IMG/VR virus record: IMGVR_UViG_3300037852_000247
Span: 1-64,000 of that record
Strand: one strand, 5' to 3'
DNA from: a virus
Lineage: Duplodnaviria; Heunggongvirae; Uroviricota; Caudoviricetes
Length of the DNA stretch: 64,000 bases
Shown piece by piece: positions 6,621-26,173 of this stretch. The notes under the pieces were generated by a model that worked only from the letters and a program-made list of their open reading frames with translations, was not told the origin of the DNA and did not search any database. A program made the translations under genes and the position numbers. Position 1 is the first letter of the stretch, and each line of letters starts with the position of its first letter.

Positions 6621-6873
6621 GCGCGCCCTGCCCGCAGGTATGACCCCGCGCCTTCTGTCGCGCGAGGCCGCAGCGACCTATTGCGGGATTTCGCCCAACC
6701 ATTTTGATGAACACCTCGCCGAGGCGGTCCCGCCGGTCTTCATTGGTCGCCGGAGGCTTTGGGACGTCAAGGCGCTAGACCGCTGGCTTGATGCGCAATC
6801 GGGCCTCGCCCACTCTGTCGATTCTAGGTCGATGGAGGAGAGGCTCAATGGAGATCAAGGTGCGCGGCGTTAA
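6613..6873 (+). CDS. AlpA/excisionase-like HTH protein
   Basis: REAAATYCGISPNHFDEHL...PVFIGRRRLWDVKALDRWLD, typical of AlpA/Xis-type DNA-binding proteins. Sits immediately upstream of int. Confidence 0.6.
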   Translation: MAERALPAGMTPRLLSREAAATYCGISPNHFDEHLAEAVPPVFIGRRRLWDVKALDRWLDAQSGLAHSVDSRSMEERLNGDQGARR

Positions 6874-8014
6874 AGTCTATCGCAGCCGCGGGAAGGTTTA
6901 TGCCTATCACCGCAAGACGGGTAAGCGCATTCGCGCGCCGTTCGGGACTGCGGTATTCCTGGCCGAGGTCGAGCGGCTCAATGGCGCCCAACCGGTCGCT
7001 CCCAGCCCCGGCTCATTGGGCGGGCTCATTGCTGCGTATCGGCGGTCGCCGGAGTTCCTTGAGCTGGCCCCGCGGACCCGGTCCGACTACCAGAAGGTGT
7101 TCGACTACCTGCGACCGCTCGACGGCGATGCGCTGTTCGAGATCACGTCGGCCTATGTGATCGACGTCCGCGACGCGGCGTTCCGGTCGCACAAGCGACG
7201 GTTCGCGAATTACGTGCTCGCGGTACTGCGGCTGCTCCTCAAATGGGGCGCAGTGCGCGATCTGGTCGAGACAAACCAAGCTGCCGCGGTGCCGAAGCTG
7301 CGGCGGCCGCGGAACATGGCCCCCGCTAACCGGCCGTGGACGGATGCCGAATATGAAGCCGTTATCTCAGCCGCTTCCGGTGGCATCAAAATCGCCATCG
7401 CTCTCGGTCGCTTCACGGGCATTCCGGAGGGCGACATGGTCCGGTTGCCGAGATCCGCCTACGACGGCAATTGGATAAGCTGGCGCCGCGGCAAGACCGG
7501 CAACCCGGTCGACCTGCCGGCGCATCCCGAACTCAAGGCGATCCTCGACGAACGAAAAATTTTAGAGATCCCTGACCCCGCCATGCCGGGAGCTAGCCTG
7601 ATTTTAGATCGAGGCGATGCGGAACCGGATGCACCCCGTAGCTCAACGGAAGAGCGCTCGTCGACCGAGACGAGAGATGGGGGTTCAAATCCCCCCGGGT
7701 TTGCGCCAATCGAGGCGATGACGATCGTCGCCGGTGTGAAGGGTCGGCCGTACACCGAGAGCGGCTTCCGCGCGGGTTTCTTCAAGCTGATCAAATCGCT
7801 GCGTGAGCAGGGTCTCGTGGGGCCGCGCCTGACATTCCAGGGACTCCGCACCACCGCCGCCACGGCGCTCGCCGAGGCCGGGTGCAGCACGCAGACGATC
7901 ATGTCCGTTACCGGGCACAGCACCGAGGCGATGGTGGCCCACTATACCAGGCAAGCCAACCGGAAAAACCAAGCCGTTGCTGCGGTCGAGAAACTGAGGC
8001 CGAGGAAGACATGA
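6848..8014 (+). CDS. int: Tyrosine integrase (phage integrase family) with in-frame insertion
   Basis: GGAGGAG RBS precedes the ATG at 6848. The N-terminal arm-type domain is MEIKVRGVKVYRSRGKVYAYHRKTGKRIRAPFG. Box II and the catalytic Tyr are FQGLRTTAATALAEAG...IMSVTGHSTEAMVAHYTR. About 50 extra residues (7565-7720) sit between the box I region and the downstream conserved block. Confidence 0.85.
   Translation: MEIKVRGVKVYRSRGKVYAYHRKTGKRIRAPFGTAVFLAEVERLNGAQPVAPSPGSLGGLIAAYRRSPEFLELAPRTRSDYQKVFDYLRPLDGDALFEITSAYVIDVRDAAFRSHKRRFANYVLAVLRLLLKWGAVRDLVETNQAAAVPKLRRPRNMAPANRPWTDAEYEAVISAASGGIKIAIALGRFTGIPEGDMVRLPRSAYDGNWISWRRGKTGNPVDLPAHPELKAILDERKILEIPDPAMPGASLILDRGDAEPDAPRSSTEERSSTETRDGGSNPPGFAPIEAMTIVAGVKGRPYTESGFRAGFFKLIKSLREQGLVGPRLTFQGLRTTAATALAEAGCSTQTIMSVTGHSTEAMVAHYTRQANRKNQAVAAVEKLRPRKT
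7620..7708 (+). other. tRNA-like element embedded in frame in int, flanked by 12-bp direct repeats
   Basis: GTAGCTCAACGGAAGAGCG is a D-arm consensus and GGGGGTTCAAATCCCCC is a T-arm. The anticodon-like stem is CTCGTC/GACGAG with a 6-nt loop. The element ends in GCGCCA. ATCGAGGCGATG occurs at 7608-7619 and again at 7709-7720. Confidence 0.45.
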
Positions 8015-20198: not shown

Positions 20199-20888
20199 AT
20201 GCTAGAGCCCGGCTCACACAATTCACCGCTGGAAATATGCCCGCTGCCGAAAACGCGCGTCGCGCTTCGCAGGTCGCTTGCATTGAAGTCGAAGCGCCGC
20301 GGGTCTAAACGTAAAGCGGGGCCGCGGTACCCCAACGGACAACTTCGGCATCGCCATGCGGTTGAGGACCCGGGCAGGCCGACCCCTCAGCGATTCCGGC
20401 ATGGCGCCGTCGCCAGACTCGAGAAGCCCATAGCCGACGACGACGGCAGGCCAGTGCGGCCATATCGCGCCGCCAGCTTTCTTTCTGAACTCGAGGCCGC
20501 CGGCCTTATCGACCCCAGGACCGGCAAGCCGATCGACAAGAAGACATGGGCGGAGATGCGCGCCACCGCCGAAGACTTCCGCGCACAGTTCTACAAGGCA
20601 AAATTAGACCGGCTGGGCGCCGCCCAATTGGTGCGCAGCGCCCACTCGACCGGAACAGCCCTGCCGCCTCCCCGCGTCGAGGACGCGCGCGTATCCGTGT
20701 GGCGATCGATCTGCGCGGTCGGCGGCCTCGCGTCGCTGGGTGGTTCGTGCCTGTGGCACGTCATCGGCTTCGAATGCGATTTGGCCAGCTGGGCGCCACC
20801 AGGATGGATCGGACGCGGGATCACCGTCTCGGAGGCCCAGGACATTTTGATTTCAACCCTGGCCACGCTGACGGAGCACCATCGATGA
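20199..20888 (+). CDS. Hypothetical protein
   Basis: 229-aa ORF with a basic N-terminus. Confidence 0.4.
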   Translation: MLEPGSHNSPLEICPLPKTRVALRRSLALKSKRRGSKRKAGPRYPNGQLRHRHAVEDPGRPTPQRFRHGAVARLEKPIADDDGRPVRPYRAASFLSELEAAGLIDPRTGKPIDKKTWAEMRATAEDFRAQFYKAKLDRLGAAQLVRSAHSTGTALPPPRVEDARVSVWRSICAVGGLASLGGSCLWHVIGFECDLASWAPPGWIGRGITVSEAQDILISTLATLTEHHR

Positions 20889-21895
20889 TTCAGTCCATCT
20901 GCCTGCTGGGATCTTTCCGGGTTTGCGCGGATCCATCGGTCACGATCCCGAAGAAAGGCAAGGCGCTGCTGGCATTGCTGGCGATAGCCGCGCTTGACGG
21001 CGATGGGATGAGCCGGCACCAGCTGGCGAAGATGCTGTGGCCTTACCTGGATTACCACCAGGCCCGCCACCGCCTGCGCCACTGCCTAATGGAGTTGCGC
21101 AAGGAGATGCGCGCGGAGGCCGTCAAAACTCTCATCACTGATTTAGTCGATTGCCGCGCCGATGTATCAACGGACGTCGCCGATTTTGCGCGGCTGGAGA
21201 AATCCAACAACCAGCATGACCTCGAACTGGCCGCGAATCTCTACCGCGGCGATATGCTGGGTGATTTATGGATCAAGTCGGAGCCGTTCCGCGAGTGGCT
21301 CACTCTCGAGCAGGAGATGTGGCGGGTGCGGGCGATGAAGGTGCTGGTGCGGCTTTCCGGAATTGCCCGTGACAATGCCGATCACCCTGTCGCGATTGCC
21401 GCCGCCCGACGCCTAGTGCAGATCGACCCGCTCAACGAGGACAACCAGCGGCTATTGATCGTGACCCTCGATACCGCCGGACAGCACGGCGAAGCGAAGC
21501 GACAATATCGCCGCTGCCGCAAGACGCTCAAGGAGGAATTGGGCATCGATCCCGACCCCGAAACGAGAGACCTCGCCGAGCGGCTGTTTACCGTCAAGAA
21601 TATTCAGCAGGCCAAGCCCGTCGAGATGATTTGGGCGGTCGAACGGGCGGAGGAGATTCGCGATAATCTGGACCACAGTGCCAGCCTAGTCGAAGCCTTG
21701 CGCATCGACCGCGAAGTGATGGCGAAAGTGCTGTCGCACCTGGAACAGATCATCGACACGAAGCATGTCGGCATGAAGTCGCTCGAACGGATGCGCGACG
21801 CGATCAAACACCGTTTGGGGGACGAGCATCTCGCCACCGCGCCCCGGCATCGCCCGCAATCAAACGGCGAGGTGGGCGTCGAGGTGAGGGCCTAA
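20885..21895 (+). CDS. SARP-family transcriptional activator (winged-helix + BTAD)
   Basis: LLGSFRVCADPSVTIPKKGKALLALLAIAALDGDGMSRHQLAKMLW is an OmpR-type winged helix. LYRGDMLGDLWIKSEPFREWLTLEQEMWRVRAMKVLVRL is BTAD-like. Confidence 0.6.
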   Translation: MIQSICLLGSFRVCADPSVTIPKKGKALLALLAIAALDGDGMSRHQLAKMLWPYLDYHQARHRLRHCLMELRKEMRAEAVKTLITDLVDCRADVSTDVADFARLEKSNNQHDLELAANLYRGDMLGDLWIKSEPFREWLTLEQEMWRVRAMKVLVRLSGIARDNADHPVAIAAARRLVQIDPLNEDNQRLLIVTLDTAGQHGEAKRQYRRCRKTLKEELGIDPDPETRDLAERLFTVKNIQQAKPVEMIWAVERAEEIRDNLDHSASLVEALRIDREVMAKVLSHLEQIIDTKHVGMKSLERMRDAIKHRLGDEHLATAPRHRPQSNGEVGVEVRA

Positions 21896-21907
21896 CCGGC
21901 GATCATC

Positions 21908-22102
21908 GTGGGATGGCTCTTCCTAGGGTATATCTCGTTTGGCGCAGGGGTCGTGGCCATGGCGCTGATCGATCACCCGAAGGGACGCGAATGGTTTCTG
22001 GTGCCGTTCGCTTTGGTCTGCTGGCCGTTTGCCCTTGTAGTATGGCATCGATGCCGCGGACCGCTCGATCGATCTGAACCTCCCGAATCCAACCGTCGAT
22101 AA
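21908..22102 (+). CDS. Small membrane protein
   Basis: Two hydrophobic helices. Confidence 0.35.
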   Translation: MGWLFLGYISFGAGVVAMALIDHPKGREWFLVPFALVCWPFALVVWHRCRGPLDRSEPPESNRR

Positions 22103-22152
22103 TAGAGATTATCGGTGGTTGGGAGTGAGGGGCAAAGTACGGTGGGGAGCCC

Positions 22153-22455
22153 ATGAAACAAGCCGTCCGAGAGAACCGCCTGGGCAAGGTCCGCGTAGCC
22201 GAATGCATGCTCGACCAGGCTCCGAAGATGGCGTGGCTGCGCTCCCGGATGGACGTGTTTGAAGAACTCCACGACGCCAACAATGGCTGGGTCTGGTTTG
22301 TCGGCTATGCGCCGGAGTTCGATGCGCTTGAGCTTGGGGAACAGGCACCGGAGTACGATGCGGTCTTAACTTACGAGATCATCGATGACCCGCCGCCGCC
22401 CCTGCTGACCTTCCGACGTCGCGAGCCCTGGGAAGTTCGCTCTAAATTAACGTAA
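22153..22455 (+). CDS. Hypothetical protein
   Basis: 100-aa ORF. Confidence 0.4.
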   Translation: MKQAVRENRLGKVRVAECMLDQAPKMAWLRSRMDVFEELHDANNGWVWFVGYAPEFDALELGEQAPEYDAVLTYEIIDDPPPPLLTFRRREPWEVRSKLT

Positions 22456-22473
22456 TCTCGCAGGGAGGCGGCC

Positions 22474-23556
22474 ATGGCGACTTTGCCGGTGCCGCTGACC
22501 AGATGGGAAATCAGCCGGGAAATCGGCAAATCGGCCGATCTCGGCCGAACGGCGGCCGAATTCGCGCGGCACTCGCGCGCGCCGGCGACCGAGAGCGCTT
22601 ACGCCTCGGATTGGGCCGATTTTTCCTTCTGGTGCGAGTCCGCCGGGCTCATCCCGCTGCCGGCCGCGCCGGTGACGATCGGCGCTTATCTCTCAGATCG
22701 CTCGGGCATCCTCAAGGTCTCCACCCTCAATCGCCGGCTGGCGGCGATCACCGCAATGCATCGGCTCGGCGGTCATGGCCTCGATGGCAAGCACCCCGCG
22801 ATTGCGTTGGTGCTGGCCGGCATCCGGCGGACCTATGGCACCCGGCAGGTTGCGAAGCGGGCGCTGCTGACCGAGGACCTCCGGCGCATCGTTCGAAAGC
22901 TGCGGGTCGAGCGGCCTGGCGGCTGCCGCGATCGCGCGGTGCTGTTGGTCGCCTTTGGTGCTGCGCTGCGCCGCTCCGAGCTGATCGCGCTCGACCGCGA
23001 CGACATCACCATCACCCAGGCTGGCCTGACGATCCTGGTGCGCCGGTCGAAAACCGACCAGGAAGGGCAAGGCCGCGAGATCGGGATTCCGCGGTCGCGT
23101 AAATCGACGACCTGTCCGGTGGCGGCGCTCGAAGCCTGGCTGGAGTTGACTGGGGGGGGCGGAAAATCCCCCCAGTCGGAAACCCCGGAATTTTCCGGTG
23201 AACGAATCATCAACGGGAAACCTCCGAATGAAACCTCCGACACCGGGAAATCTTCCGGAGGTTTCCCGACACCGCTCTTCACCCGGGTCGACCACGGCAG
23301 GATTACCGCCGACCGGCTGACCGGCCGGGCTGTCGCGGAGATCGTCAAGCGGGCCGCAAAGCGGGTCGGCATCGACCCCTCGAAGGTCGCCGGGCACAGT
23401 CTGCGCAGCGGCTTCGCCACCAGCGCCGCACGCGGCGGAGCGAGCCTCGCCGACATCATGGCCCAGACCGGGCACAAAAATAGCGATGTTGCGATGCGGT
23501 ATGTGCAGCGCGGCAAAATCCTGCAGAACCCCGCCTCGAAGGCTGTTCGGCTATGA
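22474..23556 (+). CDS. Second tyrosine recombinase/integrase with in-frame structured insertion
   Basis: N-terminal SAM-like domain ESAYASDWADFSFWCESAGL. Box I ALRRSELIALDRDDI. Box II and catalytic Tyr HSLRSGFATSAARGG...GHKNSDVAMRYVQ. About 39 extra residues are encoded by 23150-23270. Confidence 0.8.
   Translation: MATLPVPLTRWEISREIGKSADLGRTAAEFARHSRAPATESAYASDWADFSFWCESAGLIPLPAAPVTIGAYLSDRSGILKVSTLNRRLAAITAMHRLGGHGLDGKHPAIALVLAGIRRTYGTRQVAKRALLTEDLRRIVRKLRVERPGGCRDRAVLLVAFGAALRRSELIALDRDDITITQAGLTILVRRSKTDQEGQGREIGIPRSRKSTTCPVAALEAWLELTGGGGKSPQSETPEFSGERIINGKPPNETSDTGKSSGGFPTPLFTRVDHGRITADRLTGRAVAEIVKRAAKRVGIDPSKVAGHSLRSGFATSAARGGASLADIMAQTGHKNSDVAMRYVQRGKILQNPASKAVRL
23150..23270 (+). repeat. 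Hairpin-rich element embedded in frame in the second integrase
   Basis: GGGGGGGGCGGAAAATCCCCCC hairpin and CCGGAATTTTCCGG hairpin. Perfect 12-bp inverted repeat GGGAAACCTCCG (23215-23226) / CGGAGGTTTCCC (23256-23267). Internal direct repeat GAAACCTCCGA x2. Confidence 0.55.
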
Positions 23557-23795
23557 ACCTCGCGACGCTTGCGGCCCCCGCTGACGGTATGAGCGGCGGC
23601 TGCGCCTATCTGATCGACGACGCGGCGGGGCGACACGACTGCGGCGCGTTGCGGCGACCGTGCTCGCCTTATTGCGCGGAGCACCATGCGATCTGCCACG
23701 TGGTGATCGGCAGCCGGAGCGAGACCCGAAAGCTCTGGTGGTTCGAATATTTGGCCGACAAGGCTGGCAAGGGTCGTCTCCCGCTGGGTCATTGA
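23553..23795 (+). CDS. Hypothetical Cys/His-containing small protein
   Basis: CAYLID...CSPYCAEHHAICH. Confidence 0.35.
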   Translation: MNLATLAAPADGMSGGCAYLIDDAAGRHDCGALRRPCSPYCAEHHAICHVVIGSRSETRKLWWFEYLADKAGKGRLPLGH

Positions 23796-23832
23796 GCGGC
23801 GCGCCTTAACGTTCATCAGCGGAGGGTTTCAC

Positions 23833-24138
23833 GTGAACCAATCACCCGAACCTGCCCGCATCATGCCGTTGTTCGATGAGGACGAGCTCGAGCTCGCGGT
23901 CGAGTTTGGGGCCGCCCGCAGCTGCGCCCTGGTGCGCGAGTTGATGCGTGTCGCGCCCCAAAACATTATCCCGCCGCGCTATCTGCAGTGGACGCCGCGC
24001 CTGTCGGAGGGGGTCTTTGTGCTCACCGATCGCGCCGCTTTTCTGGTGGCGCCGGAGGACGTGGACGAATTCTGCCCCACTTTAGAGATGATGATCAGGG
24101 GGGAGTTGCGCGACGGGGAGGTACAAGGGAATTGCTGA
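23833..24138 (+). CDS. Hypothetical protein
   Basis: 101-aa ORF. Confidence 0.4.
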   Translation: MNQSPEPARIMPLFDEDELELAVEFGAARSCALVRELMRVAPQNIIPPRYLQWTPRLSEGVFVLTDRAAFLVAPEDVDEFCPTLEMMIRGELRDGEVQGNC

Positions 24139-24363: not shown

Positions 24364-24735
24364 ATGCCGCTCGACCCTGAAATAAAGCGCCTGCGCAAAC
24401 TCTCGCCCGCGGCGCTCGCCGACGAGGCTGGTGCGCTGAAGGCGCGGACTGAGGCCATCAAGGATGAGGCGATCCGGCGCGGCCTGAAGAAGGCCGAGGG
24501 GCAATTCTGGAAGCTGGCCCTAACCCCACCCGGGCAGTCGAACCGCACCGACAAGAGCCGGCTGCTGGCGGTGCTGGGCATCTCCGAGAGCGAATACCTG
24601 ACGCGCTTCACCACCCCGACGCAGACCGATTGGGTGATGCGGTGCACGGCGAGGAAGGTGCTGCGAGCGGCGGCGTCGGCGTGGGCGGCGAAGGCGGTGG
24701 AGGCAAAGGCGCGGCGTGAGCCGAGAGCGCTTTGA
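24364..24735 (+). CDS. Hypothetical protein
   Basis: 123-aa ORF. GCGCTTTGAAT is repeated twice directly downstream (24728-24757). Confidence 0.4.
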   Translation: MPLDPEIKRLRKLSPAALADEAGALKARTEAIKDEAIRRGLKKAEGQFWKLALTPPGQSNRTDKSRLLAVLGISESEYLTRFTTPTQTDWVMRCTARKVLRAAASAWAAKAVEAKARREPRAL

Positions 24736-24778: not shown

Positions 24779-26173
24779 ATGGCGCGAGGCGGAGCGCGGG
24801 TTGGAGCGGGTCGGAAGGCCCAAAAAAGGCCCAACACTTCCCCCGTGTCGCGCGCCCGCGCGCCCGCGCGCGAGTCGGACGGAAATCAAAGGCCGTGGCC
24901 GGCCGACAAGGTCGAGCGATGGTTGATCGATCGGTTGATCCCATACGCTCGAAATGCTCGCACTCATAGCGACGAGCAGGTAGCGCAGATCGCGACCTCG
25001 ATCCGCGAATTTGGCTTCACCAACCCGGTGCTCGTTGACGAAGCGGGTACGCTGATCGCCGGGCATGGCCGTGTGCTCGGGGCGCACCAGCTTGGCATTA
25101 CCGATGTGCCGACGATGGTGGCGCGCGGGTGGACGCCGGCGCAAATCCAGGCTTACCGGCTCGCCGACAACAAGCTGGCGCTCAACGCCGGGTGGGACCC
25201 GGAATTGCTTCGGCTTGAGCTCGGAGAGCTGAAGCTCGGCGGCTTTGATTTATCGCTGACCGGGTTTGGCGAGCTCGAACTCAAAGACATCATGGCCGAG
25301 CGGACCGAGGGGCTTACCGACCCCGACGACACGCCCGCGGTGCCCGAGCATCCGGTCTCGGTGGCGGGCGATTTGTGGATCCTCGGGCGGCATCGTCTCC
25401 TCTGCGGCGACAGCACGGTCGCGACGGACGTTGAGCGCGTGCTCGGCGGCGTCGAGCCGCACCTGATGGTCACCGACCCGCCTTATGGGCTCAATTACGA
25501 CGCTAATTGGCGGAACGAGGTTGAGAAGCTCAACTTTCGGACGCGCGGAACTTCCGCCACCGGGCCAGTGCTTAACGACGACAGGTCTGACTGGACCGAA
25601 GCGTGGGCTCTATTCCCTGGAGAAGTTACGTATGTTTGGTGCGCCTCGCTCCAGTGTCCCGCTGTTGCCGCGCATCTTAGACAATGTGGATTTGAACCTC
25701 GCAATTTGATCATATGGGCAAAAAGCAGCCTCGTGGTCAGCCGCGGCCACTATCATCCGCAGCACGAAACCTGCTGGTATTCGGTTCGCAAAGGCAAAAC
25801 AGGACATTGGACGGGCGATCGAAAACAATCGACGCTTTGGCAAATCGTCAAGTCAAATAAGCTGGAGACCGGGCACTCGACGCAAAAGCCGGTCGAGTGC
25901 ATGCGCCGGCCGATCGAGAATAACTCCTCATCCGGCCAGGCGGTCTATGAGCCTTTCTGTGGTAGTGGGACAACGATAATCGCGGCCGCGATGACCGGCC
26001 GCGCTTGCCACGCTATCGAACTCAGCCCGCAATATGTCGACGTCGGCGTCAAGCGCTGGCAGGACTTCACGGGCGAGGCCGCGGTGCTAGAGGGCGACGG
26101 CCGCACCTTCGACCAGATCGCCGCTGAGCGGCAGCCTCAAGCGGCTACGTCCGAGGCTGCAGATGCCGCGTGA
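24779..26173 (+). CDS. ParB-like nuclease domain fused to DNA methyltransferase (N6/N4 type)
   Basis: ParB-N domain RLIPYARNARTHSDEQVAQIATSIREFGFTNPVLVD...GHGRV. Methyltransferase motif IV DPPY and motif I FCGSGTT. The first ~22 nt (ATGGCGCGAGGCGGAGCGCG) are identical to the start of terS at 27608. Confidence 0.8.
   Translation: MARGGARVGAGRKAQKRPNTSPVSRARAPARESDGNQRPWPADKVERWLIDRLIPYARNARTHSDEQVAQIATSIREFGFTNPVLVDEAGTLIAGHGRVLGAHQLGITDVPTMVARGWTPAQIQAYRLADNKLALNAGWDPELLRLELGELKLGGFDLSLTGFGELELKDIMAERTEGLTDPDDTPAVPEHPVSVAGDLWILGRHRLLCGDSTVATDVERVLGGVEPHLMVTDPPYGLNYDANWRNEVEKLNFRTRGTSATGPVLNDDRSDWTEAWALFPGEVTYVWCASLQCPAVAAHLRQCGFEPRNLIIWAKSSLVVSRGHYHPQHETCWYSVRKGKTGHWTGDRKQSTLWQIVKSNKLETGHSTQKPVECMRRPIENNSSSGQAVYEPFCGSGTTIIAAAMTGRACHAIELSPQYVDVGVKRWQDFTGEAAVLEGDGRTFDQIAAERQPQAATSEAADAA

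Follow-up and report, generated by a model that had tools for sequence, protein, structure and literature searches.

A hairpin-rich in-frame insert in a hypervariable loop of a Cre-like phage recombinase

In Rickettsia, palindromic elements have been inserted in frame into genes, where they are translated and tolerated in surface loops of the proteins (PMC10969869). Inverted repeats can also be formed in place: two reports describe template switching as able to create or perfect hairpins and to change coding sequence (PMC8794818, PMC8604942). A further precedent concerns tyrosine recombinases themselves, as integrase genes that extend across attP are documented (PMC4383910, PMC6070905). Here we describe a 64,000-nucleotide stretch of Caudoviricetes DNA (positions 1 to 64,000 of IMG/VR record IMGVR_UViG_3300037852_000247, a contig from a JGI soil metagenome that carries phage genes; the window in the following), in which the Cre-like recombinase gene int2 carries an in-frame insert of 41 codons built of nested hairpins. 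Most likely, the insert is a variant of a known phenomenon, namely repeat DNA tolerated in a hypervariable loop. To the more specific reading, that non-coding-like repeat DNA is tolerated in a permissive loop and has been remodelled by hairpin-driven slippage or template switching, we assign a probability of about 0.5.

With the Rickettsia palindromic elements (RPEs), and also with intragenic elements of the MITE and ERIC type, the insert has in common that it is in-frame palindromic DNA in a surface loop, that it preserves the open reading frame and that close relatives have empty sites in its place. Terminal inverted repeats and a target-site duplication were not found at its boundaries. RPEs form families of ~150 bp with dozens of copies per genome and a conserved peptide, whereas the unit found here is only 10-13 nt long and variably arranged, with one extra locus per related genome, no conserved peptide and no transposition signature found. 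Quasipalindromes that are hotspots of template switching, as presented in three reports (PMC7202029, PMC8794818, PMC8604942), resemble the insert in that an inverted repeat is imperfect in one relative and perfect in the window, in clustered changes that raise complementarity and in indels bounded by short repeats and hairpin loops. Their mechanism leaves unexplained, however, that a motif of the insert is common to distant intergenic sites.

Host recombinase and architecture of the insert

The gene int2 (22474..23556, + strand) is an open reading frame for a 360-aa protein that matches PF00589 (Phage_integrase) with 65.9 bits against a cutoff of 27.1, as well as PHROG integrase families; some relatives additionally contain PF02899. 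The solved protein nearest in sequence is Cre recombinase of phage P1 (E 6e-11), and a Foldseek search with the AlphaFold2 model likewise returned Cre as the best match (E 1e-12), the top 33 matches all being Cre or Tre with template modelling (TM) scores of 0.58-0.66. The catalytic motifs RRSEL, SKTDQ, GHSLRSG and TGH...MRY are readable, with GHSARVG and MNY (NYI) as alignment partners in Cre. By sequence, int2 thus has the Arg-Lys-His-x-x-Arg-His/Trp-Tyr set of the Cre-like simple type, and its predicted fold is, like that of Cre, composed of two domains without an N-terminal arm-binding domain. The identity to Cre is only ~22%, and the loop that concerns us here comprises 10 residues in Cre versus ~48 in int2. 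Distant relatives of int2 are common on plasmids, while the representative genomes of GTDB contain no close one (best identity 46%).

The insert comprises residues T226-T266, encoded by 23149..23271 (+ strand), between CPVAALEAWLEL and PLFTRV; these are 41 codons and not 39 as counted in the earlier note. It aligns to the short Cre loop SGVADDPNNY, which connects the helix behind the catalytic-lysine hairpin to the strand that comes next. An alignment of homologues agrees with the expectation that only a few residues are normal here, as most of ~7,800 homologues are ~315-320 aa long and have 6-8 residues at this position. In the AlphaFold2 model, residues 229-262 have a predicted local distance difference test (pLDDT) score of 33-37, i.e. 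below 50, and no secondary structure, and they are flanked by a helix (215-226) and a strand (270-273). The structure prediction proposed in the earlier note hence models the insert as a disordered surface loop.

The DNA of the insert folds far better than expected from its composition. Its minimum free energy is -36 kcal/mol, compared to -23 +/- 2.9 kcal/mol for dinucleotide shuffles (z -4.53), and 0 of 200 shuffles folded as well, the hairpin content thus being non-random. Folded as RNA, the insert has a z of -4.61, while 57 control windows between 20 and 27 kb have a mean z of -0.16 (sd 1.08, minimum -3.5), and its inverted repeat ranks strongest within 19-25 kb. The GC content is 0.57 versus 0.68 in the rest of int2, and at third codon positions (GC3) it is 0.56 versus 0.82. 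From this composition, the insert does not look like long-standing coding sequence of int2.

Judged from its sequence, the insert is a composite of an old loop core (EFSGERI.N), a piece with a G8 hairpin and a palindrome, and a segment that we call module C. The hairpin sequences quoted in the earlier note are all present. Hairpin 1 has a perfect 10-bp stem, GACTGGGGGG (23148-23157) with CCCCCCAGTC (23168-23177), containing GGGGGGGGCGGAAAATCCCCCC and closed by 10 nt (GGCGGAAAAT); a tract of eight G in the coding sequence (23152..23159) overlaps its 5' arm. The palindrome CCGGAATTTTCCGG follows at 23185-23198. The older, family-specific loop core EFSGERIING is encoded by 23188..23217; relatives as distant as 62-66% identity (P0012/L273, P0017) still have peptides related to it (DEDFSGDRIxNG, EDFSRDRTGN, GDRIGNG, AERIANG).

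Module C (23218..23271, 54 nt) encodes the 18 residues KPPNETSDTGKSSGGFPT and contains the lineage-specific motif CGGGAAACCTCYG in two direct copies and one inverted copy, the first of which starts at 23214. A 24-nt tandem motif, GGAAACCTCCGAATGAAACCTCCG, extends over 23216..23239 and includes the second direct copy, GAAACCTCCG, at 23230-23239. The inverted repeat GGGAAACCTCCG/CGGAGGTTTCCC (23215-23226 / 23256-23267), noted before as a perfect 12-bp repeat, in fact extends to 13 perfect pairs between CGGGAAACCTCCG (23214-23226) and CGGAGGTTTCCCG (23256-23268). The latter is at the same time the inverted motif copy, the 3' arm of the stem and the carrier of a GGAGG core resembling a Shine-Dalgarno sequence. 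A 9-nt direct repeat, CCGACACCG (23237-23245 and 23266-23274), encloses a 20-bp palindrome, GGAAATCTTCCGGAGGTTTC. No convincing target-site duplication was found: the 9-nt repeats flank this internal palindrome and not the boundaries AACGG | CCGCTC at which module C is present or absent, and are therefore not a proven target-site duplication.

Neither a tRNA nor a known RNA family was found in the int2 insert, Rfam giving only noise around it (E>0.5), and at the gathering score the window has no Rfam match apart from a tRNA-like element in int1, the first integrase gene. A consensus scan of 22300-24000 located no promoter or terminator inside the insert. At the DNA level, the int2 gene has no match among GenBank phages and the insert none among the plasmids of PLSDB, where its peptide is missing as well. 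A search of the 41-aa peptide against an index of 5.8 billion proteins returned nothing, which is uninformative as known relatives were missed too.

Variation among relatives and recurrence of the motif

The relatives nearest to int2 (80-89% identity, all of soil-metagenome origin) have inserts in the same position, the lengths and sequences of which are very different. Insert DNA could be obtained for ten variants. The ten inserts measure 51, 78, 84, 93, 102, 108, 114, 114, 123 and 129 nt, every one a multiple of three, and nine are free of stop codons, the exception being L100 with an in-frame TAG. They are mosaics of recurring modules in differing combinations: module A (AKSPIDSTYQDDRE, which has CCTATC repeats and includes a CCTATCAGGATGATAGG hairpin), the peptide DHRKICNTD as module B, the 5' piece that the window shares with locus L272, a core similar to (D/E)DFSGDRIxNG, and module C. 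Small in-frame indels between short CCTATC repeats occur in L097, L099 and L268. The inserts of the relatives also fold better than the controls, with z values between -0.1 and -3.5 (mean ~-1.9 vs -0.16).

The comparison with L272 details the changes in the 5' piece. The window and L272 have the DNA GGGGGGCGGAAAA...CCCC..TCGGAAAC in common and read it in different frames, as the G8 tract is G6 in L272; the additional two bases shift the frame of ~35 nt of common DNA, and a later net change of -35 nt restores it. Because of this difference in frame and the drop in GC3, the peptide encoded by the insert is, as far as the sequences tell, essentially unconstrained. The stem of hairpin 1 has 7 of 8 pairs in L272 (GACTGGGG / CCCCAATC) versus 10 of 10 in the window, and in this one comparison all three differences favour complementarity in the window, a pattern that would be expected from template switching (PMC8794818, PMC7202029). 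At the site of CCGGAATTTTCCGG, L272 holds ~34 extra bases between CCGGGAA and TTTTTCCGG, so that this site, read by eye, appears to be a deletion junction. A slip of one base in the G8 tract would cost int2 its catalytic C-terminal half, and the tract may possibly act as an on/off switch for the recombinase.

The 69-nt region containing module C has an identical length in all five carriers (the window, L096, L098, L101 and L271), in which it is attached to four different upstream arrangements, and it is absent from L272, L097, L099 and L100, where the flanks AACGG | CC(G/C)CTCTT are kept. By this sequence comparison, module C behaves as a discrete unit of constant length, present or absent between common flanks. 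Its invariant parts are CGGGAAACCTC, AATGAAACCT and TTCCGGAGGTTT, while the spacer is only 72% conserved. Across the five sequences, the 13-bp stem has seven substitutions, each of which changes one side only and disrupts a pair; with none of them compensatory, we see no sign of selection on stem pairing. The 13-bp hairpin is intact in the window and L101 and decaying in L096, L098 and L271; in this group, whole inserts fold no better than shuffles (z -0.8 for L096, -0.1 for L098).

Outside int2, the motif recurs at few places. Ten contigs of IMG/VR (L177-L186) turned up in a scan with GGAAACCTCNRAATGAAACCT, and none of them encodes a relative of int2. They contain GGAAACCTCCGAATGAAACCTCCG exactly in six cases and with differences at 1-2 positions in the other four, in an intergenic position just past the stop codon of a 293-aa gene and ~110 nt upstream of a ParB-methylase gene. 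The methylase is 55% identical to that of the window, where a ParB_N-DNA methylase fusion gene (24779-26173, +) lies ~1.2 kb downstream of int2, ahead of the terminase region. Nine of the ten resemble the DNA of the window over no more than 24-28 nt, and L185 does so over 35 gapped columns. In L181, the protein of 293 aa encoded ahead of the motif has no Pfam or PHROG match and is not recognisable as a recombinase. An intergenic hairpin with the same arms, CGGGAAACCTCTGA-N18-TCAGAGGTTTC, lies ~165-200 nt upstream of the int2 homologue in L096, and the corresponding spacer of L098 contains one motif copy. The unit GAAACCTCYGR is restricted to this lineage among the 273 loci that were fetched.

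Further searches were largely negative. Elsewhere in the 64-kb window the CGGGAAACCTCYG unit has no copies beyond chance, which addresses, for the window, the search of the genome suggested by the earlier note; additional motif copies come from the second locus in L096 and L098 and from L177-L186. For the other pieces, IMG/VR gave no match to the window-specific piece, none to module B, and a single AT-rich chance match to module A (L187). The hairpin form of the motif has two IMG/VR matches, both unrelated, one resembling a terminator (L274) and the other a coding palindrome (ETSANLAEVS) in a ParB-like gene (L275). The idea of a general feature upstream of ParB-methylase genes was rejected, as 0 of 80 other phage loci contain the motif with up to four mismatches.

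In the RNAalifold prediction for seven of the L177-L186 leaders, ACCUCCG of the second unit is paired with CGGAGGU, the ribosome-binding site of the methylase gene, ~100 nt downstream. Five of the seven pairs are present in every sequence and two fail in one sequence each (L185), while the changes in the kept pairs are wobbles only. The second unit may thus be an anti-Shine-Dalgarno element in these leaders, a possibility for which the evidence is weak because the loci were picked with the motif itself. The leader of L181 (1277-1417) also has a conserved GATGCCGGAAGGCATC hairpin just ahead of the start codon. L178 (4685 nt) contains two motif copies (2251-2274, - strand, and 2416-2439, + strand) in what appears to be an inverted duplication about its midpoint, with the turn-around ~70 nt from the motif; this is probably an artefact of assembly or amplification. 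In the spacer upstream of the int2 homologue, L096 carries tandem overlapping palindromes, AAACCCGGTTTAAACCCGGTTTAAACCC (2136-2165), and the equivalent spacer of L097 an unrelated perfect 14-3-14 palindrome (112-142).

Damaged copies of int2 are numerous in soil metagenomes, with a TAG inside the insert, frameshifts, deletions and an internal fragment (L100 988-1113, P0013, P0074, P0085 and P0094 among them). In P0013 and P0074, the N-terminal half of the gene is fused to the equivalent of the window gene 24364-24735, in another frame, and L268 (1516-1622) jumps from within the motif to ParB-methylase sequence. L125 (103-492) is an internal fragment (aa 96-218) with unrelated, apparently host DNA on both sides; it was considered, as was P0022, as an att junction splitting the gene, and this idea was rejected.

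Origin and possible function of the insert

In the reading that we favour, non-coding-like repeat DNA would have entered one permissive surface loop of the Cre-like recombinase. Its later remodelling would have involved slippage, both in runs and at short repeats, the loss of hairpin loops through deletion, and inverted repeats made perfect by template switching. Through selection for an open, stop-free frame, the catalytic C-terminal half (His-x-x-Arg, His, Tyr) would continue to be produced, with the additional 35-40 residues protruding as a disordered coil. The hairpins may hence record the history of the DNA and have no role as a device. The hairpins, their position in the loop, its predicted disorder and hypervariability, the change of frame, the composition, the sharing of the motif and the presence or absence of module C are observed; the route of entry, the contribution of template switching and the absence of any function are what we infer. 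The drop in GC3 together with the clean presence or absence of module C points to acquired DNA.

Several observations weigh against this interpretation. The 24-28-nt identity with an intergenic motif occurs in phages whose proteins are ~30-55% identical, which neutral drift does not explain; it requires that a short segment was transferred or that the motif has a function. All five carriers agree in the central 8-9 bp of the arms of module C, for which constraint rather than youth could be the reason. No multi-copy family was found, the unit not being repeated beyond chance in the 64-kb window, and, with two sequences to compare, hairpin 1 may have been perfected in the window or have decayed in L272. 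The proposal of a mobile palindromic element made in the earlier note is affected in both directions: the presence or absence of module C, the 24-28-nt core identical to the intergenic motif and the L096 hairpin with the same arms speak for it, while the lack of a further copy beyond chance in the window, the failure of searches to find the other modules elsewhere and the missing target-site duplication speak against it. Nothing shows that the loop is targeted by such an element.

If the favoured reading is true, the recombinase loop tolerates 15-45 arbitrary extra residues, even in another frame, which would be useful for the engineering of Cre-like enzymes. The locus would then be a natural phage example of palindromic or repeat DNA that colonises a protein loop and is reshaped by hairpin-driven mutation, and it cautions that hairpin-rich DNA within a recombinase gene need not be a recombination site. 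These consequences are modest; the parallel with the tRNA-like DNA in int1 is the more intriguing lead and would gain weight if the loop were a recombination site.

Some of the evidence could instead be accounted for by a working cis-element that happens to sit in the loop, the CGGGAAACCTCYG units being either a protein-binding site or, at the RNA level, an anti-Shine-Dalgarno or leader element for the ParB-methylase and terminase genes. In each of three contexts, the motif precedes the ParB-methylase/terminase block and has its orientation: in L177-L186, at a distance of 0.1 kb; in L096 and L098, in front of int2; and in the window, within the int2 gene itself. Its direct and inverted copies in varied arrangements are as for binding sites, and the leader pairing and the invariant arm cores of module C also fit. 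We nevertheless consider this explanation rather unlikely, as L097, L099, L100 and L272 do without module C, no copy was found in 80 phage loci that have related ParB-methylases, no start codon comes after the GGAGG of the insert, and neither covariation nor an Rfam match was found; the conservation in L177-L186, which were retrieved with the motif, is partly circular. The necessity of the element is called into question by close relatives that lack it and by the missing covariation. A little less probable still, in our estimate, is an ordinary fast-drifting, family-specific loop with local repeats and hairpins, for which the intergenic likeness would be a secondary copy or a coincidence. The peptide DFSGDRI.N, common down to 62-66% identity, the uniqueness of the unit in the window and the failure of searches to find modules A and B and the window-specific piece outside this loop are in line with it. 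On the other hand, the 24-28-nt match at unrelated intergenic positions and the L096 hairpin are well beyond chance, a 24-mer being expected, by our estimate, ~1e-3 to 1e-4 times in a collection of that size, and the GC3 drop and module C indicate acquired DNA. The earlier note held that an insert both unique in the genome and conserved at the amino-acid level would be such an ordinary loop; the unit is indeed unique in the window, but the peptide is hypervariable and even its frame differs.

The remaining explanations invoke the recombinase itself or its translation. A functional recombination site within the gene, the other suggestion of the earlier note, would make int2 span its own lox- or attP-like site in the style of the Mx8 and SSV integrases, with CGGGAAATC-TTCCGGA-GGTTTCCCG (23244-23268) as candidate arms. 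This 25-bp stretch has a 9-7-9 inverted-repeat layout, and breakpoints lie in or near the loop in P0013, P0021/L268, P0022 and L125. As with Mx8 IntP and the SSV-type integrases cited as precedents above, DNA that is not protein-like and has the symmetry of a site lies inside the frame of a tyrosine recombinase, and int1 has tRNA-like DNA in the same loop. Such a site is unlikely because close relatives lack it: at 80-89% identity the same DNA specificity would be expected, and they have neither module C nor hairpins 1 and 2. The stem changes in module C break pairs, the breakpoints do not fall on 23244-23268, and P0013, P0074 and L268 are internal deletions to downstream genes and L125 an internal fragment, without host junctions. 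In a small sample of contigs, no copy of int2 split at the site and joined to host DNA was found, the truncated copies being deletions, frameshifts or the internal fragment. Unlike the Mx8 and SSV cases, then, no split gene was found at the site, the site is missing from close relatives, and the insert has no similarity to a tRNA or another RNA family. A better lox-shaped candidate of 34 bp is located upstream (22089-22122). Taken together, we regard the explanation by an intragenic site as quite improbable. The same low standing applies to the broader idea that int1 and int2 both span their own recombination sites at the same loop and that the inserts are footprints of aberrant recombination capturing foreign DNA. 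If it were true, int2 would have captured a leader motif and int1 a whole tRNA-like gene, the latter with its 12-bp direct repeats on both sides; the loop would serve as a natural recorder of past recombination partners, and the G8 tract could additionally switch the recombinase on or off. More generally, the exact recurrence of the motif and the int1 insert leave a small probability for a recombination-linked origin.

Programmed translational bypassing, by which the insert would be skipped as in T4 gene 60 or the mitochondrial 'byp' elements, is hardly credible. Hairpins are a feature of known bypass elements, and L100 has the TAG within its insert and the correct frame afterwards. A bypassed gap, however, requires neither a length divisible by three nor freedom from stop codons, and the inserts have the former in ten and the latter in nine of ten cases; L100 is more simply a pseudogene, as with the other damaged copies.

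The int1 insert and neighbouring features

The observation that two recombinase genes of the window have structured elements in the same loop is substantiated by int1 (6848-8014, +). It contains an in-frame insert of 46 residues (~7572-7703) with a tRNA-like sequence at 7632-7704, and BLASTP of both proteins places the end of the int1 insert at that of the int2 insert, just before the strand that aligns with PLFTRV. The tRNA-like element scores 45 bits with the Rfam tRNA model, has an odd four-base anticodon according to ARAGORN and is weakly similar to tRNA-Thr genes. It is flanked by 12-bp direct repeats, ATCGAGGCGATG (7608-7619 and 7709-7720). In P0121/L270, which is 94% identical to int1, the insert is entirely absent, and we consider the int1 insert to be recent. 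Yet another insert, of ~60 residues, occupies this position in P0130/L269. No copies of int1 split at the loop were found, its short homologues being frameshifts past the loop. The parallel between int1 and int2 may reflect a shared mechanism or only a loop where insertions survive.

The region upstream of int2 contains a BTAD/SARP-type transcriptional activator gene (20546-21895, +) shortly ahead of it. Between the two genes, 350 bp upstream of int2, lies the 34-bp palindrome mentioned above (22089-22122), with the loxP-like 13-8-13 layout CCAACCGTCGATA-ATAGAGAT-TATCGGTGGTTGG and preceded by GAACCTCCCGAATCCAACC, which resembles the tandem motif. It was found in this contig only and in no other fetched locus. 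Cre has loxP as its site, while int2 has no established lox-like site, for which this palindrome is merely a candidate.

Finally, int1 and its closest relatives deviate at catalytic positions, with Pro at the position of the first catalytic Arg (GRFTGIPEGD) and Gln in place of the His of His-x-x-Arg (FQGLRTT). This clade may therefore, by its sequence, be catalytically impaired or non-canonical. More distant relatives of int1 read MREGD and FHGLRH at these positions.

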